A stretch of 64,000 bases of DNA, taken from positions 30,592 to 94,591 of the IMG/VR virus record IMGVR_UViG_3300008120_000012. The stretch is one strand, 5' to 3'. The notes beneath the pieces were generated by a model. That model ran no database searches. It saw only the letters and a list, made by a program, of their open reading frames with translations, and was not told where the DNA came from. The position numbers were made by a program, and so were the translations under genes. Source of the stretch: a virus. Below, piece by piece: positions 427 through 17,066 of this stretch (position 1 is its first letter; each line of letters starts with the position of its first letter).

Positions 427-840
427 ATGGTTATGGATATGGACAAAAACCCTTTAATCAACCCCAAAACTGGTAAGCCTATTGTAGGAAATGTTCGTCG
501 TCAGGTCATTGATAAGCATTATGACTGGGGTCTTTATGTATACAAAAAGGCTGATGGTAGATGGTTTACTGATGGAAATGGTTCTGTTTTGAATATTCCT
601 TCTAATAAAGGTGATGTTAATCAAATTAATAAATTAAAAGAAGCAGCCATGTATTATGGTGATCCTGGTGATGGTAAGGCTGTTTTTGTTCCTGGACTAA
701 ACAGGGTATCAGAAGAAGAGTATTCTGAGCAGGTAGAAAGATTGAGATCTGGTTTAATTCCATCAATGAACGACCTGGGAGCATGGAAAGCAGCACAAGA
801 TACAGTAGACAAATATGGAAAAGGTGTTTTAGATGAGTGA
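427..840 (+). CDS. hypothetical phage protein upstream of portal (likely leaderless start at ATG 433)
   Basis: 137-aa ORF overlapping the portal start; TGATATACT at 417-425. Confidence 0.6.
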   Translation: MVMDMDKNPLINPKTGKPIVGNVRRQVIDKHYDWGLYVYKKADGRWFTDGNGSVLNIPSNKGDVNQINKLKEAAMYYGDPGDGKAVFVPGLNRVSEEEYSEQVERLRSGLIPSMNDLGAWKAAQDTVDKYGKGVLDE

Positions 841-2473
841 AGATTTTGAATATGAGTATGTTAGTGCATCACTAAACACTCAATCGGAAAAAGAAAATAT
901 TTTTAAAAAGAGTGACCCATTTAATCAAGATTGGGAAAGTTTAAAAAATCTTTTAAACATAGAACAAAATTTTAAAAGACGAACTGCTAGAAATGTAAGC
1001 AAGGCAGTTGAAACTTATAGTTCTGCAATTGTTACACAATCTCCAGCACCTACAGAATCTTATTTAGCATCTGCTAGAGCATCTCAAGTAGGAGATGGTG
1101 CTGGCTCAAAAACCATTAATCCAGGAACTGTTTATAGAAACGGTTATGGAATTTTTGATGTAATTACGCCTCCATATAATTTATATGAACTTGCTAACTT
1201 TTATGATACTTCTTTTGCTAACCATGCTGCTATTGATGCTAAGGTAGAAAATGTTGTAGGTCTTGGATATCGTTTTGAAATGAATTCAAAAACCATGATG
1301 AAGTTATCATCAGCAACTGATGAGGCTGCTGTAGAAAGAGCAAGAAAAAGAATTGAAAGACTTAAAATTGAAACAAAAGACTGGCTAGAAAGTTTAAACT
1401 CTGATGAGAGTTTTACTGACATTATGGAAAAGATATATACAGATGTTCAGGCAACTGGAAATGGCTACATGGAAATTGGACGTAAAGTTAATGGAGAAAT
1501 TGGTTACATAGGACATATACCATCAACAACTGTTCGTGTGCGTCGTCTTCGTGATGGATTTGTTCAGATCATAGGACCAAGTTTGGTTTACTTCCGTAAC
1601 TTTGGTGCAAAGAATAAGAATCCATTGACAGCAGATCCTAGACCAAACGAAATTATACATTTCAAGGAATACTCACCACTAAACACTTATTATGGTGTAC
1701 CAGATATTATTGCTGCTCTGCCTTCATTAATTGGAGATCAATTGGCTTCTCAATATAACATTGATTATTTTGAAAACAAAGCAGTTCCAAGATATATAAT
1801 TACTCTAAAAGGTGCAAAACTTTCTCCTGATGCAGAAGATAAGATGTTTAGATTTTTACAGACTGGACTTAAATCTCAGTCACACAGAACTCTTTATATT
1901 CCACTGCCTGGAGACACAGAGTCATCTAAAGTAGAATTTAATATGGAGCCAATTGAAAACGGTATTCAAGAAGGCTCTTTCAAAGAATATCGTAAGCAAA
2001 ACCGTGATGATATTTTGGTAGCACACCAAGTTCCAATATCTAAACTAGGTGGTCAGGATTCTGGAATTGCTTCAGCGCTTGCACAGGATAGAACTTTTAA
2101 AGAGCAAGTTGCAAGGCCAGAGCAACATAAAATAGAAAAAATGTTAGCAAAGGTAATTCAAGAATATACAGACATTATTGAGTTAAAGTTTAATGAACTC
2201 ACTTTGACTGATGAAATAGCACAATCACAAATTCTTGAAAGATATGTCAAAAATCAAATTATGCTTCCAAATGAGGCTCGTGAGATTTTAGATCTGCCAC
2301 AAGTGCCTCATGGAGATGAACCACTAGAATTAACTGCTAGAGCATCAGCAGACTCTAATGCCAATAATGCAAAAAATAGAGCAAGGGATGCAGAAAGAGT
2401 TAATAACTCTTCCGATTCACCAGCAACACTATCTGGTAGAAATCCAAAGGGAGAGGGAAGATCTTCTCAATAG
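833..2473 (+). CDS. portal protein (PBSX/HK97-like)
   Basis: GNGYMEI, EIIHFKEYSPLNTYYGVPD, YFENKAVP, NEAREIL motifs; precedes protease and capsid. Confidence 0.93.
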   Translation: MSEDFEYEYVSASLNTQSEKENIFKKSDPFNQDWESLKNLLNIEQNFKRRTARNVSKAVETYSSAIVTQSPAPTESYLASARASQVGDGAGSKTINPGTVYRNGYGIFDVITPPYNLYELANFYDTSFANHAAIDAKVENVVGLGYRFEMNSKTMMKLSSATDEAAVERARKRIERLKIETKDWLESLNSDESFTDIMEKIYTDVQATGNGYMEIGRKVNGEIGYIGHIPSTTVRVRRLRDGFVQIIGPSLVYFRNFGAKNKNPLTADPRPNEIIHFKEYSPLNTYYGVPDIIAALPSLIGDQLASQYNIDYFENKAVPRYIITLKGAKLSPDAEDKMFRFLQTGLKSQSHRTLYIPLPGDTESSKVEFNMEPIENGIQEGSFKEYRKQNRDDILVAHQVPISKLGGQDSGIASALAQDRTFKEQVARPEQHKIEKMLAKVIQEYTDIIELKFNELTLTDEIAQSQILERYVKNQIMLPNEAREILDLPQVPHGDEPLELTARASADSNANNAKNRARDAERVNNSSDSPATLSGRNPKGEGRSSQ

Positions 2474-2513
2474 TTGAGATGTTCAATAAAATGTTTGATA
2501 TAATAGGATTGCT

Positions 2514-3836
2514 ATGAATATACAAAAAGCACACTGGACGACCTCACAGGAAAACGTACGTATATCAATGCCTTTTAGCAAGGTTGATACTGAGCGTCGC
2601 ATAGTCTCTGGTTTTGCAACATTAGATAATGTTGATAAACAAAACGACATTGTTACTACAGAAGCAAGCGTTGCTGCATTTAAAAACTTTAGAGGTAATA
2701 TTCGTGAAATGCATCAGCCAACTGCAGTAGGAAAGATGGTATCTTTTAAAGAAGACCGTTACTTTGATCCTAGCAGCAAAAAGTTTTATTCTGGAGTTTT
2801 TGTTTCAGCATATATTTCAAAGGGTGCACAAGATGCATGGGAAAAAGTCCTTGATGGAACATATACTGGTTTTTCAATTGGTGGTAACATCAAGTCTTGG
2901 GACGATGCGTTTAATGAAGAGTTAAACAAGAGCATAAGAATTATTAAAGATTATGATTTATTTGAGTTGTCTTTAGTAGACAGCCCAGCAAATCAATTTG
3001 CAAGTATTGTTTCAATTGAAAAAGCCGATGGCCAAACTGTATTAAAAGGTTCTGCTACAGAAGTAGAATTAGAAAACGTTTTTTGGGATTCAGAATCTGG
3101 AATTGTTGTAGTTTCTGAACAAGAGTCAGCAGTAAGTCCAGCAACAGGAAAAGAAATGAAGAATATCGGCTTCGTTGAAAAAAGCGATAAAGAAAATACC
3201 GATATGTTAAAGTTCTTAGTTGATAGTGCTAAAGGCATTAAGACAATTAAGATGACAAAGGAGGTAATTCCAATGACAGAAGATACTAACGTAGAGGCAG
3301 TAGTAGAAGATACTCCTGTAGTTACTGAAGAATCAAACGTTGAGATTGCTCCAGAGGCTCCAGCAGATGCTCCAGCAGATGCTTCTGCAGAAGAAGCGGT
3401 TGTTGAAGAGTCTGAATCATCTGCAGAGGTTGTAGAAACAACTGAAGCAGAAAAGAGCATTGATACTGTAAATCCAGAAGAGGCTATCGTCAAAGCCGTT
3501 GCAGATATCAAAGACTCTCTTAATAATGCCTTTGGCGATCTAACAGCAACAATCAAATCAATTAATGATCAAGTTGCTGAACTAACAAAATCAATAGCAG
3601 GTGTAACTCAAGATGTAACATCTGTTAATTCAAAAGTTGTTTCTGTTGCAGATGAGGTTGCAACAATTAAGAATGACTTTAATGAGTTTGGAAAGCGAGT
3701 AGATAAGGTAGAATCCGATACTGCTTTCCGCAAGTCTGGCGATCTTGGCGAGATCGTGCAGGAATTGGCAGAACAGCCAGTTCAAAAATCCCTATGGGGC
3801 GGTCGTTTCCTCAAATCAACCGACCTATTTAATTAA
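2514..3836 (+). CDS. HK97-family prohead protease fused to acidic/coiled-coil scaffold
   Basis: RIVSGFA, IREMH, GFSIGG, ELSLVDSPAN protease motifs; acidic and coiled-coil C-half. Confidence 0.9.
   Translation: MNIQKAHWTTSQENVRISMPFSKVDTERRIVSGFATLDNVDKQNDIVTTEASVAAFKNFRGNIREMHQPTAVGKMVSFKEDRYFDPSSKKFYSGVFVSAYISKGAQDAWEKVLDGTYTGFSIGGNIKSWDDAFNEELNKSIRIIKDYDLFELSLVDSPANQFASIVSIEKADGQTVLKGSATEVELENVFWDSESGIVVVSEQESAVSPATGKEMKNIGFVEKSDKENTDMLKFLVDSAKGIKTIKMTKEVIPMTEDTNVEAVVEDTPVVTEESNVEIAPEAPADAPADASAEEAVVEESESSAEVVETTEAEKSIDTVNPEEAIVKAVADIKDSLNNAFGDLTATIKSINDQVAELTKSIAGVTQDVTSVNSKVVSVADEVATIKNDFNEFGKRVDKVESDTAFRKSGDLGEIVQELAEQPVQKSLWGGRFLKSTDLFN
3273..3836 (+). CDS. putative nested in-frame scaffolding protein
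   Basis: AAGGAGGT RBS 7 nt before in-frame ATG 3273 inside the protease gene. Confidence 0.6.
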   Translation: MTEDTNVEAVVEDTPVVTEESNVEIAPEAPADAPADASAEEAVVEESESSAEVVETTEAEKSIDTVNPEEAIVKAVADIKDSLNNAFGDLTATIKSINDQVAELTKSIAGVTQDVTSVNSKVVSVADEVATIKNDFNEFGKRVDKVESDTAFRKSGDLGEIVQELAEQPVQKSLWGGRFLKSTDLFN

Positions 3837-3861
3837 TAAAATCACTTAGGAGGTGAAATAT

Positions 3862-4989
3862 ATGTCGGAACAGAACAACACAGAGATTGTAAAGAACTAT
3901 CCAGGTTCAACTTCACCAGCAGGTCAATTGAACTCTGAAGGATCATTCGCTTCAGGCGGAATCGGTTCAGTTACAACTCCAGCAGGCGGTATCCTTGGAA
4001 ACACACCAACAGCAAACATGGGTGTTACCACAGGACCAAACGCAGTAAACCCAACTGGTACACTAGGAGGTATCCTATTGCCAGAGCAGGCTCGTCGTTT
4101 CATTGACTACGTGTGGGATGCAACAGTTCTCGCCCAGGATGGTCGTAAGGTTACTATGAGAGCCAATACGATTGAACTTGAGAAGGTCAACGTTGGTGAG
4201 CGTGTTATTCGTGCAGCAGCGCAAGGTTCAAATAACTACACAAACGCTGGTGCTACATTCACTAAGGTAGAACTAACAACCAAGAAGATTCGTCTTGATT
4301 GGGAAGTATCTACTGAAGCACTTGAAGACAATATTGAAGGAGGTGCTCTAGAAGATCACATCGTACGCTTGATGACCAATGCATTTGCTAATGACATTGA
4401 AGATCTAGCGATTAACGGTGATGGTACAACTGGAGATTTCCTTTCAATTATGAATGGTTTCGTAAACCGTGTAAAGACTGCTGGTTCAGGAGCACACGAG
4501 TCAATCGTGACTGTTACAAGCAACCAGTGGACAACTGATGTAATGCAGAACATTATCTTGGCAATGCCACGTAAGTATCGTGCACTTAAGAGCAATCTTA
4601 AGTTCTATGCAGGTACTGACGCATTCCAGGGAATTATCAAGCATAACGGTACACTTGCTGATGCAGTAGCAGAAGCATTTGCTTATCGTCCATCAGGCAC
4701 ACCAGCAAACCGTCAAGCATATCTTGATGGTTCAGGACAAACTTTCGGTGGAGCACGTACAACACGTGTTCTCGGAATTGATGTTCAGGAAGTTCCTTAC
4801 TATCCTGCAGGCTATGTAGATCTTACATTCCCTCAGAACCGTGTATGGGGTTTCCAGCGTGACATCACTGTAAACCGTGAGTACAAGCCAAAGAAGGACA
4901 CAATTGAATACACAGTATTCGTCCGATTCGGCGTACAATGGGAAGAACTTGATGCAGTTGCTTACGCAGATGCAGCAGCAGAATCCTAA
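3862..4989 (+). CDS. major capsid protein (HK97 fold)
   Basis: GGILLPEQARRFI, EVSTEALEDNIEG, DLAINGDG motifs; AGGAGGTG RBS before ATG 3862. Confidence 0.93.
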   Translation: MSEQNNTEIVKNYPGSTSPAGQLNSEGSFASGGIGSVTTPAGGILGNTPTANMGVTTGPNAVNPTGTLGGILLPEQARRFIDYVWDATVLAQDGRKVTMRANTIELEKVNVGERVIRAAAQGSNNYTNAGATFTKVELTTKKIRLDWEVSTEALEDNIEGGALEDHIVRLMTNAFANDIEDLAINGDGTTGDFLSIMNGFVNRVKTAGSGAHESIVTVTSNQWTTDVMQNIILAMPRKYRALKSNLKFYAGTDAFQGIIKHNGTLADAVAEAFAYRPSGTPANRQAYLDGSGQTFGGARTTRVLGIDVQEVPYYPAGYVDLTFPQNRVWGFQRDITVNREYKPKKDTIEYTVFVRFGVQWEELDAVAYADAAAES

Positions 4990-5011
4990 AAAATAGTTCT
5001 TAAATGAACCC

Positions 5012-5054
5012 TTGAGGGGGAGGTAGTGTAACAACTGCCTCCCCTTTCAACTTT
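5012..5054 (+). terminator. hairpin / probable intrinsic terminator after capsid gene
   Basis: ttgagggggaggtagt-gtaaca-actgcctcccctttcaa inverted repeat. Confidence 0.65.
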
Positions 5055-5067
5055 ATAAGGAGAATAA

Positions 5068-5313
5068 ATGTCATATTCAGATACAAACCCAAATGAAACA
5101 CTAAATGCACAAGGCGCAGTAGCAATAAATAGTGTTGGCGGTGTAATTATTATGGGACCAAGCGGATTGATCACTCAGCATAATGCGTTGGGTAATATTA
5201 ATGGAGATGTAATATTTGGAGATACAACAGGTCCTAACGCTGTAAATCCATCTGGTACTCCATCTGGTGGAAAAAATCCACAACAAAATAATTTTATAAG
5301 TTATATAAGATAA
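5068..5313 (+). CDS. 81-aa paralog of the major capsid N-terminal arm
   Basis: TTGPNAVNPSGT vs MCP TTGPNAVNPTGT; own AAGGAG RBS. Confidence 0.75.
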   Translation: MSYSDTNPNETLNAQGAVAINSVGGVIIMGPSGLITQHNALGNINGDVIFGDTTGPNAVNPSGTPSGGKNPQQNNFISYIR

Positions 5314-5347
5314 GCATTCTGGTATAATAAACGCAGGAGGATTTTTA

Positions 5348-5566
5348 ATGTCAAAGTCAAAAGTAGAAAAAACAACTAATAGCCCAGCAGCAGATGACAA
5401 GGTAGCACTTTATTCTCAAAAGAATTTATTTTGGAATGAAGTAGGAACTCTTAAAATTGGCTACAATATTGTCAATTCAGAAAATGCTGAAAAGTGGTTA
5501 AGGCATAAGGCTGTTAGAATTGCAACTCCAGACGAGGTGGCGAAGGCGTATAGCCAAAACAAATGA
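5348..5566 (+). CDS. small head-associated hypothetical protein
   Basis: ORF with AGGAGG RBS and TGGTATAAT promoter (5320-5328). Confidence 0.65.
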   Translation: MSKSKVEKTTNSPAADDKVALYSQKNLFWNEVGTLKIGYNIVNSENAEKWLRHKAVRIATPDEVAKAYSQNK

Positions 5567-6522
5567 TAGTTAGAAGAGTGCCCCCATACCCAATTGATAT
5601 TACCTATACGGTCCCTGAGCCAAATACTGAATATTATTTTACAATTGAAAACTCTCCAAAAACCATTGAGGCAAATGAAACATTAACATCAGATGCCAAC
5701 TCTAAAATAACATATACATTAACTGGAGACTTTGTTAAGTATGATCAAGACTATGCAGTTTTAGTTTATGATAGCCCAGAGGACGATACTGGAGATGTCG
5801 TAGTACAGGATATATTAAATGTAATTAGACCGTATGTTGATGTTAGAGATCTTGTCTCTACCGCTTCAGAAATTGCAGAGTATGAGGAGTATGAACTTCT
5901 TGCTAGAACATTAATTAATAGCATTGTCGGACCAAAAGGATTTTTATTTGAAAAGAGTATATTAGAGGTTACTGGACAAGGAACTGACTATTTACCACTA
6001 TGGGATCTAGCCTATAAGATTTTACAAGTATATGAAAACTCAGAATTAGTATATGATTCAACTCAAGACCCACCATACCTTGGTGAGTATACATATGGAA
6101 TAACACAGGATAGAACTGCAATATATAAAGATGCTGGTGGAATATATGATCGTTCAGAAAAAAAGCCATTAAGGTTTAGACCAAGTGCTTCAGATTCTTT
6201 TAATGCCTATACATCTTTAGATACACCAGAGTTTAGTGCACCAAATAATACAGTTATGTTTCCAGAAGGATGGGACTATGTAATTATTTATGAAACAGGT
6301 CATCGTGTTATACCAAATGACATTCGTGACGCTACTATCAGATTAATGGATGACATTCGTTGTGGGAAATTAGAATATTTTAAGAGATCCATTGATTCAT
6401 ATCAAACAGATCAATTTAATATAAAGTGGGATCCAAGACATCTTGATGGAACTGGAAACCTTTTTGTTGACAAGGCATTAGAAAAATATACAACAACATT
6501 ACCTAAGCCATGGGTGATTTAA
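5563..6522 (+). CDS. head-to-tail adaptor/connector
   Basis: Position; IPNDIRDATIRL and TGNLFVDKALEKY adaptor-like motifs. Confidence 0.7.
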   Translation: MIVRRVPPYPIDITYTVPEPNTEYYFTIENSPKTIEANETLTSDANSKITYTLTGDFVKYDQDYAVLVYDSPEDDTGDVVVQDILNVIRPYVDVRDLVSTASEIAEYEEYELLARTLINSIVGPKGFLFEKSILEVTGQGTDYLPLWDLAYKILQVYENSELVYDSTQDPPYLGEYTYGITQDRTAIYKDAGGIYDRSEKKPLRFRPSASDSFNAYTSLDTPEFSAPNNTVMFPEGWDYVIIYETGHRVIPNDIRDATIRLMDDIRCGKLEYFKRSIDSYQTDQFNIKWDPRHLDGTGNLFVDKALEKYTTTLPKPWVI

Positions 6523-6987
6523 ATGAGCGCATACCTATCATCTGGTAACTGCAATGAAACTGATCTATATTTTCCAATGACAGCAGATTTATATTATCCA
6601 ATAATTTCTCAAGGTTCTTATGGTGAAGTAAAAAAAGACTGGGTTTTTGATAGAAAGATTGCTCTTAATGCTATGCCTTTTTCAAGAAAAGGTACTGGAG
6701 AAATAGCCCCCGCAGTATTTTTACAATATAAAGATATGTTAGTTGGCAGAACAAAAGGTGACATAAGAGTAACATCAAACAACAACACAGAGGCATTGAC
6801 AAATATTTTAATTACAAATATTTCAAGTGCTTCTGGTGAATTAATATATAAAGAAAGTGCTGGCCCTAGATCTGGTCGTGGAACTATATATGAAATTGCA
6901 TCTTATGATCCTCATTTTGCTCCTTATGGCGATATAGACTATTATTCTTTTACTATACGTAGATCTGAGAACCAGGCGGCTCAATAA
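6523..6987 (+). CDS. head closure/stopper protein (putative)
   Basis: Synteny and size. Confidence 0.55.
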   Translation: MSAYLSSGNCNETDLYFPMTADLYYPIISQGSYGEVKKDWVFDRKIALNAMPFSRKGTGEIAPAVFLQYKDMLVGRTKGDIRVTSNNNTEALTNILITNISSASGELIYKESAGPRSGRGTIYEIASYDPHFAPYGDIDYYSFTIRRSENQAAQ

Positions 6988-7664
6988 TGAGAGTAACGCT
7001 TGACTATAATAAGTTTAATGCTATGATGAATAATGTTATAGGATACTCTACTGGATTTTTAGATGGTATTAATCAAGGCAAGACAATTTTTTTAAAAAAC
7101 TTAGCAGATGGAACAATAGAGACATTACGAAGATATATTGATGCTAACGCTAGAATGAATCCAGATGCCTTGCATCACGTATATGAATGGTATCGTGTAG
7201 GAAATGCAGATGCAAGACTTTTTAATATTAACTCTGTAGTACGTGGAACTGGCATATCTATTAATTCAACATTTAGGCAGTCTTCATCAATTTCTAGAGA
7301 TTCAAAAGAACCTTTTTATAACAAGGCAAGAATTATGGAGAAAGGTATTCCAATTACTATTAAGCCAAAAGAAAGTAGCGTTTTGGTTTTTGAAGAAAGT
7401 GGAGAAACAGTATTTACTAAAAATGAAATTGTAATTAATAATCCTGGAGGAAATAAAGTTAGAGGATCCTTTGAAAAAGTTATTGATCAATTTTTTACAA
7501 TTTATTTTTCACAAGCATTTTTAAAGTCTTGCGGTATTATGGACTATTTAGAAAACCCTAGGGCATATAAAGATAACTTCGCAGTTGGAGCAAAGACTGG
7601 AAGCAGTGCTGGCAAATCAACTGGGTATAAATGGATTATTAATGCAAAAGTTGAGGTAGAATAA
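6987..7664 (+). CDS. neck/tail-completion protein (putative)
   Basis: Synteny; KARIMEKG motif resembling HK97 gp10-like proteins. Confidence 0.5.
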   Translation: MRVTLDYNKFNAMMNNVIGYSTGFLDGINQGKTIFLKNLADGTIETLRRYIDANARMNPDALHHVYEWYRVGNADARLFNINSVVRGTGISINSTFRQSSSISRDSKEPFYNKARIMEKGIPITIKPKESSVLVFEESGETVFTKNEIVINNPGGNKVRGSFEKVIDQFFTIYFSQAFLKSCGIMDYLENPRAYKDNFAVGAKTGSSAGKSTGYKWIINAKVEVE

Positions 7665-7668
7665 GAAC

Positions 7669-8208
7669 ATGGCTACAGTAACAGATCTTCCATATCCACC
7701 AAAGTGGGTGAATAAGTTTATTTTTCAAGAGTTAGCAAAATATGATGATATTGGAGTTAGTGCTATATCTCAACTAGTTCCTATATTTGCAACTAGCCCA
7801 ATTAATACAGAAGAAATATATAAAAATGTTATACAGGCAACTAATATCTCTGAGCCATTAGTAATCATATATGACAGACTTATCACATTTAGACCCAGTG
7901 TATTTTATCCCCATAAACGAGAGCAATTAATATATTATTTATATAGTACTAGTTTGGCCAACGTCAATAATGCTAATATTGTTATTTCTCAATTATTAGA
8001 CAGAGAAGATGCATCTGCTCAGGACATGAATACTTGGTGCACCCTTAATAAAGGCTCTGAAAATTATAATGTATATTTTCATAATACTAAAGTTTATCAG
8101 GCTCAAGAGGCAAGGGATGTCCTTGACCTTGCTTCTGCTAGAACCATATTCGTAAATAAACTCATAATAGAGTACGACTACCACACAAATTCCACCTCAT
8201 ATTTGTAA
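7669..8208 (+). CDS. tail terminator (putative)
   Basis: Immediately upstream of the tail tube gene. Confidence 0.5.
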   Translation: MATVTDLPYPPKWVNKFIFQELAKYDDIGVSAISQLVPIFATSPINTEEIYKNVIQATNISEPLVIIYDRLITFRPSVFYPHKREQLIYYLYSTSLANVNNANIVISQLLDREDASAQDMNTWCTLNKGSENYNVYFHNTKVYQAQEARDVLDLASARTIFVNKLIIEYDYHTNSTSYL

Positions 8209-8288
8209 TAAAAAGGCTGTTATAATTGTCTTGAGGAAACACAAACGCCGTACAACTTAATAAAAAACTAAAAAGAAGAGGTGATATT

Positions 8289-8936
8289 ATGCCATATACT
8301 CGTGGTAATAATCAAAATATTATCGTCGGTGCAGCAGCGTTCTTTATTGCTGACACAACACTGACTCCAGGCACACTTCCATCGTTGTCAGCAGGTTCTG
8401 CAGCAACACAGTCTTTCCGTGAGACTTTGACAGCAAATGCATCGTATGACAACGTAGGTTACACAATGAATGGTCTTGAGTTACAGTTCCAACCAAATTT
8501 TGGTGAGGTTCAGGTAGATCAGGTTCTTGACGTTGCTAAACTTTACAAGCAAGGTATGACAGTTAGCCTAAGAACTGCTTTTGCAGAGGCTACTCTAGAA
8601 AATCTTTTGATTGCTTTGGCTTATGGAAGTTCTAAACTAACAGGTACCAAGAACAGCGCAGCAGGTCAAGCACTTGATCTTTCTGCAGGAGATCTTGGAG
8701 AATGTCCAGTTGAGCGTGGAATCATTGCAGTAGGTCCAGGAACTGGAGATTGCGATGACTCAAATCGTATTGAGCGTGTTTACGCTGCATACCGTGCACT
8801 TTCAATTGAAAATGTAACTGTATCAGCAAAACGTGATGCCCCATCTATGTTTGAGGTATCATTCCGCTTGCTACCTGAAGATACTTCAGGTTCATATGGA
8901 AAGATAATTGACCGTACTTGGACAATTACTTCCTGA
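8289..8936 (+). CDS. major tail (tube) protein
   Basis: NIIVGAA, VGYTMNGLEL, VQVDQ motifs; own promoter, GAGGTG RBS and terminator. Confidence 0.85.
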   Translation: MPYTRGNNQNIIVGAAAFFIADTTLTPGTLPSLSAGSAATQSFRETLTANASYDNVGYTMNGLELQFQPNFGEVQVDQVLDVAKLYKQGMTVSLRTAFAEATLENLLIALAYGSSKLTGTKNSAAGQALDLSAGDLGECPVERGIIAVGPGTGDCDDSNRIERVYAAYRALSIENVTVSAKRDAPSMFEVSFRLLPEDTSGSYGKIIDRTWTITS

Positions 8937-8954
8937 TAATTTAATACAATAAGA

Positions 8955-8993
8955 AACAACAGGCCCGTCTTTTTAGACGGGTCTTGTTGCTTT
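8955..8993 (+). terminator. intrinsic terminator after tail tube gene
   Basis: caacaggcccgtct-tttt-agacgggtcttgttg hairpin. Confidence 0.75.
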
Positions 8994-9010
8994 ATGATAG
9001 AATATAAAAT

Positions 9011-9715
9011 ATGGCAACTGAAATTTATAAAATAGAAAATGTACAAACTATTGATGGTTTGAATATTGAAATACATCCATTAAAAATAAAATATATGAGA
9101 CAGTTTATGGATCGTTTTTATGACATAGGAGACAACATGTCAGAAGAACAAATGATAGATATTTTATGTGACTGTGTAAGAATTTCAATGAAACAGTATG
9201 CTCCTCAATTTTCTAAAAGCATAGAAGATGTTCAAGATAATTTTGATATAAAAACTGTATATGATATTTTAGATTTTGCTGCAGGTATAAAAATAAATAG
9301 AGAAAAGAAAAAAGAAGAGGTTCAAAGTAACTCTAACTCAGAGAGTTTGTCATGGAAAGATCTTGATTTGGTTAAATTAGAAACAGAAATTTTTCTATTA
9401 GGTATATGGAAAAGTTACGATGAACTAGAAACATCTATTTCAATACAAGAACTATTTGCCACAATCTCCTCCAGCAGAGAATTAGACTATGAAGAAAAAA
9501 GATTTTTGGCTGCAATTCAAGGAGTTAAATTAGACGGGGACCCACAGGATGAAGGCAGAAAGAAGTGGGAAGACATGAAGGCAAGAGTCTTTAGTGGTGG
9601 CGCAACAAATGACAGCAAAGATATTTTGGCTTTACAAGGATACAATGCTCAAAAACTAGGTTTTGGTATTGGGATGGGCATAGATTACGAAGACCTAAGA
9701 ACTCCTTCTAGTTAA
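9011..9715 (+). CDS. tail assembly chaperone, long (GT-like) form
   Basis: Between tail tube and TMP; N-terminal ~95 aa paralogous to 9767..10081. Confidence 0.7.
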   Translation: MATEIYKIENVQTIDGLNIEIHPLKIKYMRQFMDRFYDIGDNMSEEQMIDILCDCVRISMKQYAPQFSKSIEDVQDNFDIKTVYDILDFAAGIKINREKKKEEVQSNSNSESLSWKDLDLVKLETEIFLLGIWKSYDELETSISIQELFATISSSRELDYEEKRFLAAIQGVKLDGDPQDEGRKKWEDMKARVFSGGATNDSKDILALQGYNAQKLGFGIGMGIDYEDLRTPSS

Positions 9716-9766
9716 TAAAAATATCTTATTATGCTATAATTGACTTAACCTAATTAGGAGGAAATA

Positions 9767-10081
9767 ATGTCAACAACCACATACGAAGCACAAACGCTTA
9801 CGCTTATGGACGGTACAGAGGTTACTGTAAGACCTCTAAAGATATCACTACTTCGCCAATTTACCAAAAAGTTTGAGGGTATTGGTGATGTTCAAGAAGA
9901 TAATGATAAGTCTATGGATCTTCTTCTTGAGTGTGTAGCAATCGCTATGCAACAATACAAGCCAGAATTGGCAGATGTAAAGAAACTGGAAGAGATTATA
10001 GATCTTCCAACGGTCTATAAAGTAATTGAGGCTGCCTCTGGTGTTCCAATTACTGACTTGGGCCAACCAAAAATTGCATAA
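9767..10081 (+). CDS. tail assembly chaperone, short (G-like) form
   Basis: Directly before TMP; own TGCTATAAT promoter and AGGAGG RBS. Confidence 0.7.
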   Translation: MSTTTYEAQTLTLMDGTEVTVRPLKISLLRQFTKKFEGIGDVQEDNDKSMDLLLECVAIAMQQYKPELADVKKLEEIIDLPTVYKVIEAASGVPITDLGQPKIA

Positions 10082-10097
10082 GTAAAGAGGTGAATAG

Positions 10098-13000
10098 ATG
10101 GCTGACGTAAATGCTAATATTGGCGTAAATATAGATACGTCCAATGCGTTGGCTCAGATTAAAAATCTTCAGAGACAGTTATCTGAATTCTATACCTCAA
10201 TATCAAGATCAAGCGCAACTGCTGCATTAGCACAGCGTGATCTGCAGAGAAATCTTGTCAATAGTATAAACTCTCTTGGCGGTTTCTCTGCAGAGTTGCG
10301 TACGATTAAAACTACAGCAGAATCTTTTACTAACTCATTAGAAAAAAATAAGTTCTCAATGCGGGAATATTTCCGCTATGCAGCAGCATCTACAAAAACA
10401 TTCAGCAGAGTTTTTTCTTCAGAATTTGACACAATAAATAAAGTTGCAGAAGATAATGTAAAGAGACTACAGACACAATATATTAAACTTGGTCGTGATG
10501 CCAATGGAGCAATGAAGGCAATTGCTGTTATCCCTACCGAACTTAATATGAAGGACTTTTCTGTACAGACTCAAATGGCATCACAAAGACAGGCTATATT
10601 TAATCAATTAATTAAACAAGGCTCTACAAACCTTCTAAACTTTGGTAAGAATACTCAGTGGGCTGGTCGTCAGTTGATGGTTGGTTTTACTATCCCATTA
10701 ACATTATTGGGTAATGTTGCAGCAAAAACATTTATGGAAATGGAAACTGCTGCTATTAAATTTAAAAAAGTGTATGGAGATATGTTTACTCCAGCAGCAG
10801 AAACACAAGCAGCATTAGATAATGTAAAGGAACTAGGTGTTGCATTTACAAGATATGGAATTGCTGTTAAGGATACTGTTTCTCTTGCTGCAGATGCAGC
10901 AGCAGCAGGTTTCCAAGGCTTAGATCTACAGAGACAGGTTACAGAAGCAACAAGGCTACAGGTACTTGGTCAGATTGATCAACAGAAGGCTCTTGAAACT
11001 ACAATATCATTACAAAATGCTTTCCAGATGTCTTCAGAAGACTTGTCTGATTCTATTAACTTTTTAAACGCAGTTGAAAACCAGACAGTCGTTTCTCTTG
11101 ACGATATTACAACCGCTATTCCAAAGGCAGCGCCAGTTGTTAAGCAATTAGGTGGTAGCGTTAAAGACTTAGCATTCTTTATGGCTGCTATGAAAGAAGG
11201 CGGTATTAATGCATCAGAGGGTGCTAACGCATTAAAGTCTGGTCTTGCATCTCTTATTAATCCAACAGATAAAGCAAGAGAGATGATGGCAGGATTTGGC
11301 ATTGATATTGATGCGATAGTAAATAAAAATGCTGGCAATGTAAAACAAACAGTTATAGAGTTTGCTATGGCATTAGATAATCTTTCTGATCTAAATCGTC
11401 AAAGAGCAATTGAACAACTATTTGGTAAGTTCCAGTTAGCACGTCTATCTACATTATTTGAAAACGTTACAAGGTCTGGAAATCAAGCATCACGTGTTCT
11501 TGATTTAGCAACAGCGTCTACTGGTGATCTTGCAGCAATGGCTGATAAAGAATTAGGAATGACAGCCGAATCGGCAATGAATAAATTCCGTGCATCTGTT
11601 GAGCAACTAAAACTAGCACTTGTTCCAGTAGGAGAAGTATTTTTACAAACAGTTACACCAATTGTTGATGTTGTTTCTAATGTTTTAGATGCTTTTAATG
11701 ATTTGTCTCCAGGAGTTAAAAAAGCAATAACTGTAATGACAGTAGCAATTGGTGGTATTGGACCAGTTGCACTTATGACATTTGGTTTGCTAAATAACGG
11801 CATTGCCAATGCTATTAAATTATTTACAACTCTTCGTAATGGATACTTAAGACTTACAGGCCAATCTCAAATTTTAGGTGAACAGACTCAACTATTAACA
11901 ACAGAGCAACAGAATGCTGCAGCAGTAGCACACTCTTTAGATCAATCTCATGCTAGATTAACGCAAACATTTAATGTTGAAAAAGCAGCGCTTGATGGAT
12001 TAGTAGGTGCTTATGCTAGAGCAACTACTGCTGCTCAAAATTTCATAATTCAAAATCCAGGCATGATGCTTCCTGGAAGAATGCCTAAGAGATATGCAAA
12101 GGGTGTTTCATTAGTTCCAGGATCAGGTAGTGGCGATACAGTACCAGCAATGCTTGAACCAGGCGAGGCAGTCATTCCAAAGGCAATGGCAAAGAAATAT
12201 GCACCACTAATTAATGCAATGGTTGCTGGAAACATTCCAGGATATAGAAAAGGACTGGGTACTGGAACCGCAGTTGATATTCCAGGAGGATATGCAGCAG
12301 CACACTTTGGTGGAAGTTCATACAGAAGTGGTTCTGAACTTTTACAGATGGTGGAAGGACTTGATACGGCTTTTGCAAGACAAATTCGTACAATGGTTGC
12401 AGAAGTAGAAAATGGATTAGACAGAGTATTTACTGTATTTAGTAATGAAGTTGTCTCTATGTCTACAGAATTAAACAGAGCAGTTGGAAAAACGGGAAGT
12501 GGAAAGAGGGCTTCTGTAGACTTAGCAAGAACAGAATTAACAACTGGGGCATATGCACAAACTAGAGATATTGAACTACAAAGACAGTTAGAAGCAGCAG
12601 GAGTTTCTATTGAAGATATTAGACAAATTAATAAAAAAATCACTGAAGAAATAACAACTGGATTTGGTAGATTAGGAGATATTACAGAAGTAACAGCAGA
12701 AGACCTTGATAAGTTGATCGGTGATGCATATAAGGCAGTAGCAAAAACAGATGCAAGAGTTGATCAAGCATATAAGAATATGCAAAATATTACTACAGTA
12801 ACCAATCCGCTAAATGATTCTAGAATTGCCGTTACAAATGATCCATATACCAAGGCAAGAAAATCAGGAAAATATTATGGCGGAATGACTAGAATGGTCG
12901 GAGAAGGTAATGTTCCATATCAAGCAAATGCTAGATTTAAAATCAGTAATGCAATGGCGGGTTCTTTGGGGCTTTCATCACAAGATGCTGCTGCTATTTA

Positions 13001-16000
13001 TAATAAATTCTCTAATGAAGTTAAAGTTAGATTAGCATCACTAAGAAAAGATATAACTGCATTTACTGTAGAATTTGAAAAGCAAGCAGAACTAGCAGGA
13101 ATAAAAACTGGAAATGCTTACAAGGTTGGATTAGATAAAAACTTAAGAGATGTCTATGTAGAGTCTCGTCAACGTCAAAGTCCACACCCAATGGCATCAA
13201 AAGATGGAACTGATGATGGTAATGCATACGAAACAGCAAGACAAAACGCTATCAAACAAAGACGAGTAGCAACATCACCTGGAGGAACAGTTGGTCCAGG
13301 GGGAGTTATTATTCCACCAATGCCACCAGTAATTCCTGGCGGAGCAGAAGGCCCTATGTATGGACCAAGAAAGCCAACTTTTGTAGATAAAACTTTTGGT
13401 AGATTTAGAGGAAGATTTGGCGGAATGGCCTCTAATCCAGCAGTAGGAATGGCTGCGTCTACTGCATTCTTCGCAGCATCAATGATGCCAGGTAAGGTTG
13501 GAGAAGTTGCACAGAAGGCAATGCCAGCAGTATTTGGACTACAAGCATTGCAGATGGCGCTAAAACTTCCAATTCCGCATATCAAGGCATTTGCTGCAGT
13601 AGCACTTGCTGGTGTGGGTATATTTAAGTTAGTAAATTCTCAACTAGAAAAAAGTAGGTTGGCAATTGAAGGCTTAGGTGATGCTGCTACATTAACATCA
13701 GATAAAGCAAAAACACTTGGTAATTTCTTTGGAGTAGCACCACAAAGCACAAGACTAGAGCGTAGTGCGCTAGGTTCTGGCAGATCTGTAATGGTAGACT
13801 CACAAACAAGAACACAACTTGATGCATTACGTGCAGACGAAGGGTTTAAAAAAGATTTTGCAAAAGACATTCAATCGTTAAAAAATGCAAGTTCAAAGCA
13901 AGCAGAATTAGTTTTAAATAGTTTAGCAATACAACTAAAAGGAAAAGGTTTTGCTAAAGAGCAAATAGATTTAATTATTAAAGCATTACAAGAAGAATCT
14001 GGTAAGACAAATCTAAAAATATCTTTTGCTGATATAGATTTATCAACAGCAGAAGGTCAGGCAAAACTAAAGCAAAGCGTAACTGCTCTAACGAGGAGTT
14101 TTGGTAAAGAGTTCAAAAAAGGTTATGAATCAGAAACAAAAACAGCAGTTAGTGGTGCTACTGGAGAGATAGTAACTTGGACTGAAGAGAAACTATCAAA
14201 GGGTTTAAAGAAGAGTGTTTCAACTGCCTCTAAGGCTATTGCTGGTATGTTTAATGGATTGTCTGGACAATTGGAAAATGGATCTATTAGTTTAGATCAA
14301 TTTAATCAAGGTTTTGACTCTATTATTCAGTCAATCCAAAGCATGCCACAACCTCAAAGTGCATTATTAATGCAAAACATATTTAAAAATATGCCTGGAG
14401 ATATTGCTAAGGCTGCAGGAGAAATAAAGAATTTTTCAACTCAAGCATTACTTGCCAAAGCAGCATTACTTGGTGTTGAAACTATTACAAAAACAATGAT
14501 AAATGCATTAAAAACTGCAGAAACAAGTTCTGATGGAGGAGCGCAAAGAGCAGCAACTCGTGTTAAAGCAAAGATCAAAAAAGACACTGATGCTGTTGCA
14601 GCAGGCATGAAAGCAATGGCTGAAGCAGCAAAGAAGGCTTTTGGAGATCTTGGTGGCGCAGGTACTGGAGAAGATAGTCCATTTGTAAAACTAAAGAAAC
14701 AATTACAAGAAGCAATAACCAATGCTCAAAATTCTTCTAGAGCATTTAATCTAATGCGTCAAAATGGTGTGGGCATTGCAGAAGCACTTGAACTATCTAA
14801 AGATCCATTATTAGCAATGGTATTAGCAACTACTAAATCTAAAAAAGAATTTAATACAATATTAAAACTAATTAGAGAAATGAACAAGGAGACAGAAAAG
14901 GGTGCATTGAAGAATTTCTTGCAAGGTCTAAAAGCAAAAAATAATTTAACAGAAGAATTTACAAAGGTTATGCCATTGCTACAAAAAATGGGATTAAAGT
15001 CTGAAGAGATAATGGATATTCTTAATAATGCTGATGTAGCAAGAGGACTTATAAATGGTCTTAACCAAGCAAAAGATAAGGCAGCATTCTTAAAAAATTA
15101 TATTGATGAAATTGTTAGGGAAAGAACTTTAAGAATCAATATAGAAATGAATACTGTTGAAGGTAAGGTCAATAAAGTAACTTCAATTGCTGGTGCTCAA
15201 ATTAGATCTCTTGATGCTAGAGCAGCAGTAATACGCCGTGCAGCGCAAACTGGAAGTTATGGTGGAGATTTTTCTAAATTAAGTGGACTAAATGCAGAAC
15301 AGATGGCAAAACTAAGCAAGATTAATCTTGGAGCATCTCAGGCAGCAGTAACTGCTGCTAGAAATCAAGTTACACAACAACAGAGTATTATTGCTGGCAT
15401 ACAAAGTCAAATAAATGCAAAACAACATCTTATTTCTTTAAATAATGCCTTGATAGACAAGCAACAGCAAGAGATTGATAAGATTGATAAGTTAATAGAT
15501 AAAGAACAAGAAAGATTAAAGGCAGCAGAAGAATATGTTAAGTTAAACTTTGATGAACCATTGCAAAAACTAAATGATGAATCAAATGTTCTATCAAATA
15601 GGCTTTCTCAGATTGAGCGTCAAGAAAAAGCAATTAATGAACAGTATGATAAACAGCAAAAAGCAATGGAGGAAATGAATAAACTCAATGAAGAGGCTAT
15701 TCAACAAGGTAAAACAAGAATTAGTATTGCTGATGCTTTAAGTCAGGGAGATATTTCTGCAGCAGCACAGGGTGTTCAAGATTTAAGATCTCAGCAAGCA
15801 GAGTCTCAGTCTGGTGCTATGCAGGCTGCCATGGATGCTGCTCGTCAGCAGGCACTTGGATCAATTGCTGTTGACGGAATGACAAGGGCACAGATTGAAG
15901 AAAGACAATATCAGATACAGCAAGAGTCATTTAAACTTGAGCAGGCTAAGGCAGAATATATTCGTAACACAGTTCTTCCAATTCAAAAAGAAATTGAAAG

Positions 16001-17066
16001 ATTGGAAGCATCTAAGATTCCATTCCAAAATGAAATTAATAGATTAACTGAGGCTAATGCTGCAATTCAAAGAGAGATAGAAGATATACAAAATAATCAA
16101 CTATATGCTGCAGAACAAACACTTGATAAGTTAGAAGGTCAATTAGATGCAGCAGAAGACAAACTTGCAGCAGATGAAGCAATTGTTGAAGAGATTATTA
16201 AGCAACTAGAAGAGTCTGGCAAAACAAAAGAAGAATGGGAAAAGATTGTTGAAGAAGCAGAGGCAGCATTGGCTAAGTTTAATGCAATCCAGGCATCACT
16301 AGAAGCAGGAGAGAATGCTGCAGCAGGAATAAAGGCTATCTTAGACTCTATTAATGGAATGGTTTATACAGTAACCATTGTACAAAATGTAGTTACAGTA
16401 GGCGGAACTGTGGGCTCAACTGGTTCAAGTGGTTCAACTAGTTCAAGTGGTTCAACTGTTACAGGAACAACAACTGTTGATGGAAGAACTGTTGTAACTG
16501 GTACAAGCACTACAGAAGATGCTCACCTATCGGCACTTGCTGGAGCATCAACAGTTAATGGAACAAAGGTAGTTGATGGTCGTACAGTAATTACTGGTAC
16601 AAGTTCTAGTGGTTCAGACATATATCCAAGTTATAGTGTATATGGTGCATTTAGCGCTAAAAAATACGGTGGAAAAATTTTAAAGAGAGCAATTGGCGGT
16701 ATTGTTCCAGGTATTGGATTATCTGACAAAGTTCCAACATTATTAACTCCAGGAGAATTTGTAATAAATAAAGCATCTGCTCAGGCCTTTGGCCCAATGC
16801 TTGAATCTATTAATCAAATGCAATATCCACAAATGGCTACTAATAGAGGTTTAAGAACTGCAACACAAAAGGCTGCAGACATTGCTTTACAGAATTCAGT
16901 TGCATTATCTAAGGGAGGATACAGCGACAATAGTTCTGAGGTGTATAATTATAAGGTAGATGTTAATGTTATGGGTTCTAGCAGTAATCCAGATGAAATA
17001 GCAAATGCTGTTATGAACAAAATTAGGCAGTTAGAATCTACAACATTAAGAGGTAGGAGAGTATAA
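10098..17066 (+). CDS. tape measure protein
   Basis: 2322 aa, Ala-rich helical, TP901-like core (EGGINASEGANALKSGL), coiled coils, GDTVPAMLEPGEAV / DKVPTLLTPGEFV motifs. Confidence 0.93.
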   Translation: MADVNANIGVNIDTSNALAQIKNLQRQLSEFYTSISRSSATAALAQRDLQRNLVNSINSLGGFSAELRTIKTTAESFTNSLEKNKFSMREYFRYAAASTKTFSRVFSSEFDTINKVAEDNVKRLQTQYIKLGRDANGAMKAIAVIPTELNMKDFSVQTQMASQRQAIFNQLIKQGSTNLLNFGKNTQWAGRQLMVGFTIPLTLLGNVAAKTFMEMETAAIKFKKVYGDMFTPAAETQAALDNVKELGVAFTRYGIAVKDTVSLAADAAAAGFQGLDLQRQVTEATRLQVLGQIDQQKALETTISLQNAFQMSSEDLSDSINFLNAVENQTVVSLDDITTAIPKAAPVVKQLGGSVKDLAFFMAAMKEGGINASEGANALKSGLASLINPTDKAREMMAGFGIDIDAIVNKNAGNVKQTVIEFAMALDNLSDLNRQRAIEQLFGKFQLARLSTLFENVTRSGNQASRVLDLATASTGDLAAMADKELGMTAESAMNKFRASVEQLKLALVPVGEVFLQTVTPIVDVVSNVLDAFNDLSPGVKKAITVMTVAIGGIGPVALMTFGLLNNGIANAIKLFTTLRNGYLRLTGQSQILGEQTQLLTTEQQNAAAVAHSLDQSHARLTQTFNVEKAALDGLVGAYARATTAAQNFIIQNPGMMLPGRMPKRYAKGVSLVPGSGSGDTVPAMLEPGEAVIPKAMAKKYAPLINAMVAGNIPGYRKGLGTGTAVDIPGGYAAAHFGGSSYRSGSELLQMVEGLDTAFARQIRTMVAEVENGLDRVFTVFSNEVVSMSTELNRAVGKTGSGKRASVDLARTELTTGAYAQTRDIELQRQLEAAGVSIEDIRQINKKITEEITTGFGRLGDITEVTAEDLDKLIGDAYKAVAKTDARVDQAYKNMQNITTVTNPLNDSRIAVTNDPYTKARKSGKYYGGMTRMVGEGNVPYQANARFKISNAMAGSLGLSSQDAAAIYNKFSNEVKVRLASLRKDITAFTVEFEKQAELAGIKTGNAYKVGLDKNLRDVYVESRQRQSPHPMASKDGTDDGNAYETARQNAIKQRRVATSPGGTVGPGGVIIPPMPPVIPGGAEGPMYGPRKPTFVDKTFGRFRGRFGGMASNPAVGMAASTAFFAASMMPGKVGEVAQKAMPAVFGLQALQMALKLPIPHIKAFAAVALAGVGIFKLVNSQLEKSRLAIEGLGDAATLTSDKAKTLGNFFGVAPQSTRLERSALGSGRSVMVDSQTRTQLDALRADEGFKKDFAKDIQSLKNASSKQAELVLNSLAIQLKGKGFAKEQIDLIIKALQEESGKTNLKISFADIDLSTAEGQAKLKQSVTALTRSFGKEFKKGYESETKTAVSGATGEIVTWTEEKLSKGLKKSVSTASKAIAGMFNGLSGQLENGSISLDQFNQGFDSIIQSIQSMPQPQSALLMQNIFKNMPGDIAKAAGEIKNFSTQALLAKAALLGVETITKTMINALKTAETSSDGGAQRAATRVKAKIKKDTDAVAAGMKAMAEAAKKAFGDLGGAGTGEDSPFVKLKKQLQEAITNAQNSSRAFNLMRQNGVGIAEALELSKDPLLAMVLATTKSKKEFNTILKLIREMNKETEKGALKNFLQGLKAKNNLTEEFTKVMPLLQKMGLKSEEIMDILNNADVARGLINGLNQAKDKAAFLKNYIDEIVRERTLRINIEMNTVEGKVNKVTSIAGAQIRSLDARAAVIRRAAQTGSYGGDFSKLSGLNAEQMAKLSKINLGASQAAVTAARNQVTQQQSIIAGIQSQINAKQHLISLNNALIDKQQQEIDKIDKLIDKEQERLKAAEEYVKLNFDEPLQKLNDESNVLSNRLSQIERQEKAINEQYDKQQKAMEEMNKLNEEAIQQGKTRISIADALSQGDISAAAQGVQDLRSQQAESQSGAMQAAMDAARQQALGSIAVDGMTRAQIEERQYQIQQESFKLEQAKAEYIRNTVLPIQKEIERLEASKIPFQNEINRLTEANAAIQREIEDIQNNQLYAAEQTLDKLEGQLDAAEDKLAADEAIVEEIIKQLEESGKTKEEWEKIVEEAEAALAKFNAIQASLEAGENAAAGIKAILDSINGMVYTVTIVQNVVTVGGTVGSTGSSGSTSSSGSTVTGTTTVDGRTVVTGTSTTEDAHLSALAGASTVNGTKVVDGRTVITGTSSSGSDIYPSYSVYGAFSAKKYGGKILKRAIGGIVPGIGLSDKVPTLLTPGEFVINKASAQAFGPMLESINQMQYPQMATNRGLRTATQKAADIALQNSVALSKGGYSDNSSEVYNYKVDVNVMGSSSNPDEIANAVMNKIRQLESTTLRGRRV
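16412..16459 (+). repeat. degenerate 9-bp tandem repeat encoding GST/GSS in the TMP C-terminus
   Basis: ggctcaact ggttcaagt ggttcaact agttcaagt ggttcaact. Confidence 0.7.

Follow-up and report, generated by a model that had tools for sequence, protein, structure and literature searches.

A small stand-alone paralogue of the N-terminal extension of a phage major capsid protein is kept under purifying selection and may act on the capsid in trans

An 81-aa open reading frame (ORF) downstream of the major capsid protein (MCP) gene, called the mini here, is a real gene under purifying selection. It corresponds to the inserted Gly-rich N-terminal extension of the MCP plus the first turn of the N-arm helix, and it carries neither the 11-residue MCP leader nor anything past the start of the helix. 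Our leading, tentative explanation is that the mini would be a sub-stoichiometric capsid-associated protein that uses the binding site of the MCP extension in trans.

The DNA analysed, called the window, comprises 64,000 nt of a 94.6-kb IMG/VR viral record with a CheckV completeness of about 88%. A siphovirus-type structural module occupies window positions 833–17066. Its gene order is portal (PF04860), protease-scaffold, MCP and then several ORFs without names; a 2322-aa ORF occupies the tape-measure gene position, as judged by position only. The features relevant to the mini are as follows.

2514..3836, + strand: head maturation protease with a coiled-coil scaffold domain fused to its C-terminus (N-terminal match to Pfam Peptidase_S78_2/S78; phrog_9427 head maturation protease, E 2.8e-116)
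3862..4989, + strand: MCP gene, HK97 fold (PF05065 from aa 68 onward; phrog_1623, E 1.2e-73)
3895..4113, + strand: MCP segment paralogous to the mini (BLASTP and joint alignment), comprising the extension NYPG...GTLGG and the first turn of the N-arm helix (LLPEQARRFIDYV)
5012..5049, + strand: terminator-like GC-rich hairpin past the MCP stop; its U tract is imperfect (MFE -31.6 kcal/mol, z -4.9)
5057..5062, + strand: Shine-Dalgarno (SD) sequence AAGGAG of the mini, 5–10 nt upstream of the ATG, read from the sequence
5068..5313, + strand: mini ORF, 81 aa (P0001), stand-alone paralogue of the MCP N-terminal extension (BLASTP, profile, dN/dS and tree)
5320..5328, + strand: TGGTATAAT, extended -10-like motif at the start of the downstream unit (TGnTAwAAT, conserved in 113 related loci)
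5348..5566, + strand: orf72, head-module neighbour without a Pfam or PHROG match (synteny MCP – (mini) – orf72 – orf319 in all loci with downstream sequence)

The initial annotation had aligned the 81-aa ORF with the MCP N-terminus after IVK, and BLASTP bore this out. The mini and the MCP (P0002) shared 30 of 76 residues (39%), with an E-value of 3e-9 for this single comparison. Mini residues 6–80 were aligned with MCP residues 16–83, directly past the leader ending in IVK, and the alignment ended at FIDYV in the MCP and FISYI in the mini. The counterpart of the mini in the MCP thus comprises residues ~12–83. The mini begins with (M)SYPG where the MCP reads K-NYPG after its leader; after Met removal, it would resemble an MCP with the leader cut off. 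In the shared TGPNAVNP core, codons differed mostly at third positions, as had been noted initially.

Apart from itself, the mini matched only the MCP N-terminus in a search of the phage's own record. An HMM of 46 mini homologues matched the N-terminus of all 80 related MCPs (80/80), with E-values from 1e-18 to 1e-6; hence, the similarity is far beyond chance. In a profile search of 1.84 billion representative proteins, the module was found in minis and MCP N-terminal fragments only, with one exception. The exception, a 366-aa repeat protein that looks unrelated, was matched weakly (E 1e-5) and over a short stretch only.

The mini is rich in glycine (18%) and proline (9%), and its ESM Atlas model had a pLDDT of 0.35, meaning that it is predicted to be disordered. 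ESM Atlas neighbours were not informative (best feature score of 0.76, TM below 0.45), and no match was found in Pfam or PHROGs at E ≤ 0.01. The mini is not an HK97-fold MCP (PF05065): the MCP residues aligned with it (~12–83) precede the E-loop and the spine helix. Nor did it have the properties of a scaffolding protein, an elongated alpha-helical or coiled-coil protein encoded upstream of the MCP gene: it is rich in Gly and Pro, is homologous to an MCP segment without a helix in the AlphaFold2 (AF2) model and is encoded after the MCP gene, and a scaffold domain is present on the protease (2514..3836). Membership of a decoration or cement family was likewise indicated neither by Pfam and PHROGs nor by the ESM Atlas neighbours.

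The MCP gene likely starts at ATG 3862 and not at the mechanically called GTG 3853: an AGGAGG lies 7 nt upstream of the ATG, and the related proteins begin with M(NN)MSE. An AF2 model from an alignment of close relatives only reached a pLDDT of 33; with Streptomyces-phage-like MCPs added to the alignment, the model was usable (pTM 0.60). It showed an HK97 fold with an N-arm helix at residues 74–86 and a spine helix at residues 161–185. The best Foldseek matches were the capsid proteins of P2/P4, T5 and HK97 (E down to 2e-11), with the P2/P4 procapsid gpN chains on top (7jw1, E 2e-11). Sequence identity to solved MCPs was only 10–20%, and a PDB sequence search with the MCP profile gave no match. 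Residues 1–70 had a pLDDT below 50 and no confident structure.

The comparison with Streptomyces-phage-like MCPs from IMG/VR located the extension. These proteins have a short leader and a short Gly-rich linker, followed by LLNAEQ..RFIDY, and they lack the extension. MCPs of the window family have the same leader (MSE..EIVK) and the same LLPEQARRFIDY, with ~55 residues inserted between the two. The insertion is rich in Gly, Pro, Asn, Thr and Ser, is lineage-specific and precedes the canonical N-arm helix. Accordingly, the initial description of the mini as a copy of the capsid N-arm only has to be revised. It is a paralogue of the MCP N-terminal region, as described, but consists mostly of the ~55-aa lineage-specific insertion and the first turn of the helix.

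One Streptomyces-phage-like MCP (L248:1114-2157) had an extension of intermediate size at the same insertion point, with ~20 extra Gly/Thr/Ser-rich residues. The insertion site in the N-arm region may thus be prone to expansion. Both the MCP extension (3895–4113) and the mini (5068–5313) contain conserved X-Pro-Gly or Pro-X-Gly sites (YPG, NPSG, TPxG).

The nearest cultured phages are Streptomyces phages of the Stanwilliamsviridae (127–135 kb). Their MCPs were 43–44% identical to the window MCP, only from window-MCP residue 68 onward. Near relatives of the window phage were very common in freshwater metagenomes, and the MCP family comprised >3,800 clusters at 90% identity, abundant in freshwater viromes. 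None of these near relatives is cultured, and 50,697 phage records gave no match when searched with the mini by tblastn.

When prophage relatives were sought in bacterial genomes, only eight viral contigs were found (L164–L171), close relatives of the head module in freshwater MAGs. These MAGs were labelled Flavipsychrobacter, Flavobacterium, Actinomycetota, Aquiluna, Methylococcus, Polynucleobacter, Bifidobacterium and Lishizhenia. As the taxa are discordant, the eight look like phage contigs swept into bins and do not indicate a reliable host.

The homologues of the mini formed 46 protein clusters of 76–83 aa with 49–91% identity. A scan of IMG/VR yielded 97 mini loci, 80 of which were fetched; all contained intact ORFs of 70–92 aa save one, which was located at a contig end (L155). 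The family alignment had 19 invariant columns, mostly Gly, plus a G-P-N-A-V-N-P-S-G-T-P core. Selection was estimated in 59 non-redundant genomes with both genes, using pairs at an MCP-core dS of 0.02–0.5. The median dN/dS of close genome pairs (NG86) was 0.13–0.17 for the mini, 0.22–0.25 for the MCP extension and 0.07–0.14 for the MCP core. In a joint tree, all minis were placed in one clade and all MCP extensions in the other (SH-aLRT 99.5). These reciprocal clades indicate a single duplication that is older than the sampled diversity. The initial proposal of a selected stand-alone gene was thereby upheld.

Of the 78 closest MCP loci with downstream sequence, 17 had a mini and 61 (about 78%) did not. 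All 61 relatives without a mini have MCPs with the same extension. At least 5–7 gains or losses of the mini were required on the MCP-core tree, including between sister taxa. The patchy presence and the repeated gain or loss mean that the mini is accessory. It is therefore not an obligatory component of the capsid lattice, and any structural role is dispensable. The initial annotation had named absence of the ORF from close relatives, together with a dN/dS near 1, as a sign against a selected function; absence was indeed common, but selection was clear.

The mini cassette consists of the SD sequence, the ORF and the stop, seated between the MCP hairpin and the TGnTAwAAT motif. As the initial annotation stated, the ORF has its own ribosome binding site and follows the MCP hairpin. 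A hairpin with an MFE ≤ -12 was found in all of 113 non-redundant related loci (113/113; median -26.7). The hairpin at 5012..5049 was not called by a consensus terminator scan, owing to its overlong loop and interrupted U tract. The 26 related loci inspected have AAGGAG, or a sequence close to it, at the same place.

TGnTAwAAT was located ≤45 nt past the mini stop in all 57 loci with a mini, and in none of them (0/57) was it found between the MCP stop and the mini. In loci without a mini, the hairpin was directly followed by TCAyATTCTGrTATAAT, an SD sequence and the orf72 homologue (56/56). TGnTAwAAT is followed by GGAGG 6–10 nt on and by the next gene, and the surrounding intergenic sequence is otherwise variable.

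As the mini lies past the hairpin and has no promoter-like motif of its own, we infer that it is the distal end of the MCP unit and is expressed at a lower level than the MCP. It is thus probably made together with the MCP, in smaller amounts. The lower expression suggested by the initial annotation fits this arrangement. In a metatranscriptome (three RNA runs of one study, contigs only), exact matches covered the protease-scaffold and the MCP to about position 4992, and none were found over 4998–6200. One DNA run covered everything. Contigs from a single study say nothing, however, about read-through into the mini or its silence.

The conserved motif TCATATTCTGrTATAAT resembles mini codons 2–5 (TCA TAT CCA GG), and short ATT/CATT repeats flank the cassette. 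Both may bear on how the mini is gained or lost. Frames reading MSYSDII after the MCP in some loci without a mini were considered as relics of deleted minis and were rejected, as they are the translation of the same promoter-like motif.

In one DNA run (X1), a metagenome contig joined the mini (to 5262) to the MCP (from 4084) via 18 other letters. Rather than a rearrangement, the joint most likely represents an MCP of a relative or a cross-link of the two paralogous segments in the assembly graph. Caution is advised, since mini and MCP segments may be mis-joined in short-read assemblies.

The orf72 homologues of most relatives (L003–L082) were 107–179 aa long. Their N-terminus carried a motif like KTVFELKSYAKKNNIDLFG..K.EILE and was joined by a variable linker, either acidic or rich in Pro, to a conserved C-terminal domain (VA.YS..N..W.GVG.L..GYNIV...A.KWL....VR.ATPEEVA). 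The N-terminal motif is reminiscent of Rho-N/SAP-type helix-extension-helix domains. In the window and its nearest relatives (L084, L086, L119 and L161), the N-terminal domain is missing and only the C-terminal domain is present.

The alignment of the protease-scaffold proteins showed an acidic linker and a conserved C-terminus. At the border of the acidic linker and the coiled-coil scaffold domain, E-E-A-I-V-K (3477–3494) resembles T-E-I-V-K, which ends the MCP leader (3880–3894). A protease cleavage site E-x-I-V-K shared by the MCP leader and the scaffold linker was considered and kept as a weak lead only: any [ILV]VK was found in the protease-scaffolds of 15 of 107 relatives, and the aligned position was variable.

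We compared each mini with the MCP extension of its own genome and with those of other genomes. Under the null hypothesis of one duplication followed by independent evolution, no excess likeness to the own MCP extension is expected. The identity was 41.8% to the own extension and 37.9% to the others (permutation p<1e-4). The excess survived the removal of row and column effects and was also seen inside the two main sequence types. It remained significant when each of 16 clusters was reduced to one representative (p<0.0002). It came mainly from a patch at mini residues ~5–16 of the type PTVsHqHxGDG.

Third-codon-position identity at matching residues was 0.55 within genomes and 0.56 between genomes. 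Family-wide, the third-position identity of a mini to its own MCP was 0.41–0.55, no higher than between genomes. Identical residues were often encoded differently; for example, the two copies in one genome (L006) encode a shared Ser by different codons, TCA and AGC. As synonymous sites were no closer within a genome, the match is kept at the protein level and does not result from recent gene conversion. The most economical reading suggests either a common evolving partner, contacted by both the mini and the MCP extension, or contact between the two. Co-presence of an HxH motif (in both copies in 43 genomes, in neither in 15) was rejected as proof of co-evolution, since it reflects a single change on the tree and carries little weight alone.

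Taken together, these observations lead us to rank a capsid-associated role in trans first. The mini has kept the insert and not the leader or the helix, its changes track those of its own MCP, it is probably co-transcribed with the MCP gene at a lower level, and, as is often the case with decoration-type proteins, it is dispensable. The mini arose once, when codons ~12–83 in the 5' part of the MCP gene were duplicated, and it encodes a free copy of the flexible Gly/Pro/Asn-rich extension without the HK97-fold body. Situated between the hairpin and the following promoter-like motif, it closes the MCP transcription unit as its last cistron. In the proposed scheme, its product would engage the same surface or partner as the MCP extension, either on the shell under assembly or on the mature one. 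It would supplement the cis extensions and tune head assembly or stability without being essential.

The N-arm of HK97-fold proteins binds scaffold inside the prohead and is later exterior, where it makes inter-subunit contacts (PMC11922011). Since both the mini and the MCP extension are predicted to be disordered, no binding surface can be named. If the protease removes the MCP extension, a structural role of the mini in the virion is unlikely. Moreover, the C-terminal tail differs between subclades, so part of the mini may do something other than mimic the MCP.

The initial annotation had proposed that the mini fills N-arm grooves left empty at the portal vertex or pentons, or that it modulates capsid assembly or size; such a groove-filling role is conjectural. 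A more specific version of our explanation is somewhat doubtful. The mini, as a free extension in a pre-processed state, would pair with or replace cis extensions at certain sites of the lattice, such as the surroundings of the portal, which lack penton subunits with their arms. It would co-evolve with the MCP patch that it contacts, and it would represent a new class of capsid accessory protein.

The strongest alternative to a capsid-associated protein, and in our view a rather unlikely one, is a transient regulator or decoy of assembly. Here, the mini would vie with the MCP N-terminus for the protease-scaffold or the portal, would time scaffold release or proteolysis, or would be a protease substrate, and would not be part of the mature virion. 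A protease-scaffold fusion is encoded immediately before the MCP gene, and the N-arm in the prohead state is a scaffold-binding element in other phages (PMC11922011; PMC10275583). Competition for a common partner would fit the co-variation of the mini with its own MCP, and a modulator would fit the accessory status. However, the mini retains the Gly-rich insert, which is missing from Streptomyces-phage-like relatives with the same type of protease-scaffold. Missing from the mini are the leader and most of the conserved N-arm helix, where contact with the scaffold would be likeliest. No cleavage motif in common with the MCP was established, and the E-x-I-V-K likeness in the scaffold linker was seen in a minority of relatives.

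Two properties of the mini sequence are relevant to further alternatives. The first is a basic tail: at least 3 K/R were present in the last 8 residues of 52 of the 58 distinct minis, and the median pI was 9.7. At the very point where the two sequences cease to align, the tail stands in place of the MCP N-arm helix. The subclade of the window mini has no basic tail (it ends with FISYIR, pI 4.7), yet it is equally conserved. The second is hydrophobicity: the maximum 19-aa Kyte-Doolittle window was 1.66 in the window copy and 1.25 in the family median, compared with 0.67 in the MCP extensions. The hydrophobic stretch is rich in Gly, Pro, Ser and Asn, and the family median is below the usual transmembrane thresholds.

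The basic tail would be explained if the mini were a packaged internal protein, whose MCP-like segment docks on the inner face of the procapsid and whose Arg-rich tail contacts DNA, either for charge neutralisation or as an ejected protein. Small prohead core proteins of similar size are known, e.g. T4 gp67. The substitution of the tail for the helix at the very end of the alignment fits this reading, but the equally conserved subclade of the window without a basic tail does not. We consider it unlikely.

Still less probable is a role unrelated to the capsid, e.g. that of a small membrane-active or host-directed protein descended from an MCP 5' fragment. The greater hydrophobicity of the central segment compared with its MCP counterpart would agree with such a role, as would the patchy distribution, which is typical of accessory 'moron'-type genes. 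However, the hydrophobic stretch has the composition and sub-threshold median given above, the mini is always inside the head module on the MCP transcription unit, and protein-level co-variation with the own MCP is hard to explain without a common partner. A non-functional duplication remnant or spurious ORF, which would account for the frequent absence of the mini in close relatives, is very improbable, as it is contradicted by the low dN/dS, the intact copies at 49–91% identity, the invariant motifs and the conserved SD sequence.

Among known systems, gpN/gpO of P2 is similar in that the MCP model best matches the P2/P4 gpN chains and in the gene order of portal, protease-scaffold and MCP. 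The fusion of protease and scaffold upstream of the MCP gene is the arrangement of P2 gpO. Unlike in P2, the window MCP carries the ~55-aa Gly/Pro/Asn-rich N-terminal insertion. The N-terminus of the MCP is processed in the P2 system; in the window phage, such processing is assumed. We know of no free-standing copy of the MCP N-terminus in P2-like phages.

The vertex protein gp24 of T4 is a full HK97-fold paralogue of the MCP gp23 and forms the pentons. In both cases, a duplicated capsid gene beside the MCP gene has been kept by selection, and gp24 works in the same shell. In contrast to gp24, the mini has none of the HK97 fold and consists of the flexible N-terminal extension only.

CpmB of SaPI1, Ccm of SaPIbov5 and Sid of P4 are small capsid redirectors encoded by satellites, some with partial or whole homology to a head protein of the helper. 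The procapsid structures with Ccm and Sid were among the structural neighbours of the window MCP (7rwz, 7jw1). These redirectors are encoded by parasites and act against the phage, whereas the mini is phage-encoded, next to its own MCP gene and co-varying with it. Moreover, the mini mimics an MCP arm and not a scaffold.

Lambda gpD, T4 Soc and the GP4 cement protein are small and often dispensable, are encoded next to the MCP gene, bind between capsomers and stabilise the shell. The mini is also small and accessory, and its gene adjoins the MCP gene. However, those proteins are folded and unrelated to the MCP, while the mini is an MCP paralogue that is predicted to be disordered.

In a literature search that was far from exhaustive, we came across no report of a free-standing MCP paralogue that is confined to the N-terminal arm or extension. 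To our knowledge, no phage has been described before that encodes, under selection, a separate copy of only the flexible N-terminal extension of its own MCP. MCP paralogues and mimics of assembly proteins are already known; a paralogue of the flexible extension only is a new variation on MCP paralogy.

The natural pairs with and without a mini among near-identical head modules make a clean comparative test possible. If the mini does not bind the shell, it would still be a well-documented case of gene birth from a fragment of an essential structural gene. If it does bind, this would mean that a disordered arm can work in trans, and the mini would provide a handle on the role of long N-terminal extensions of HK97-fold proteins in assembly and maturation.
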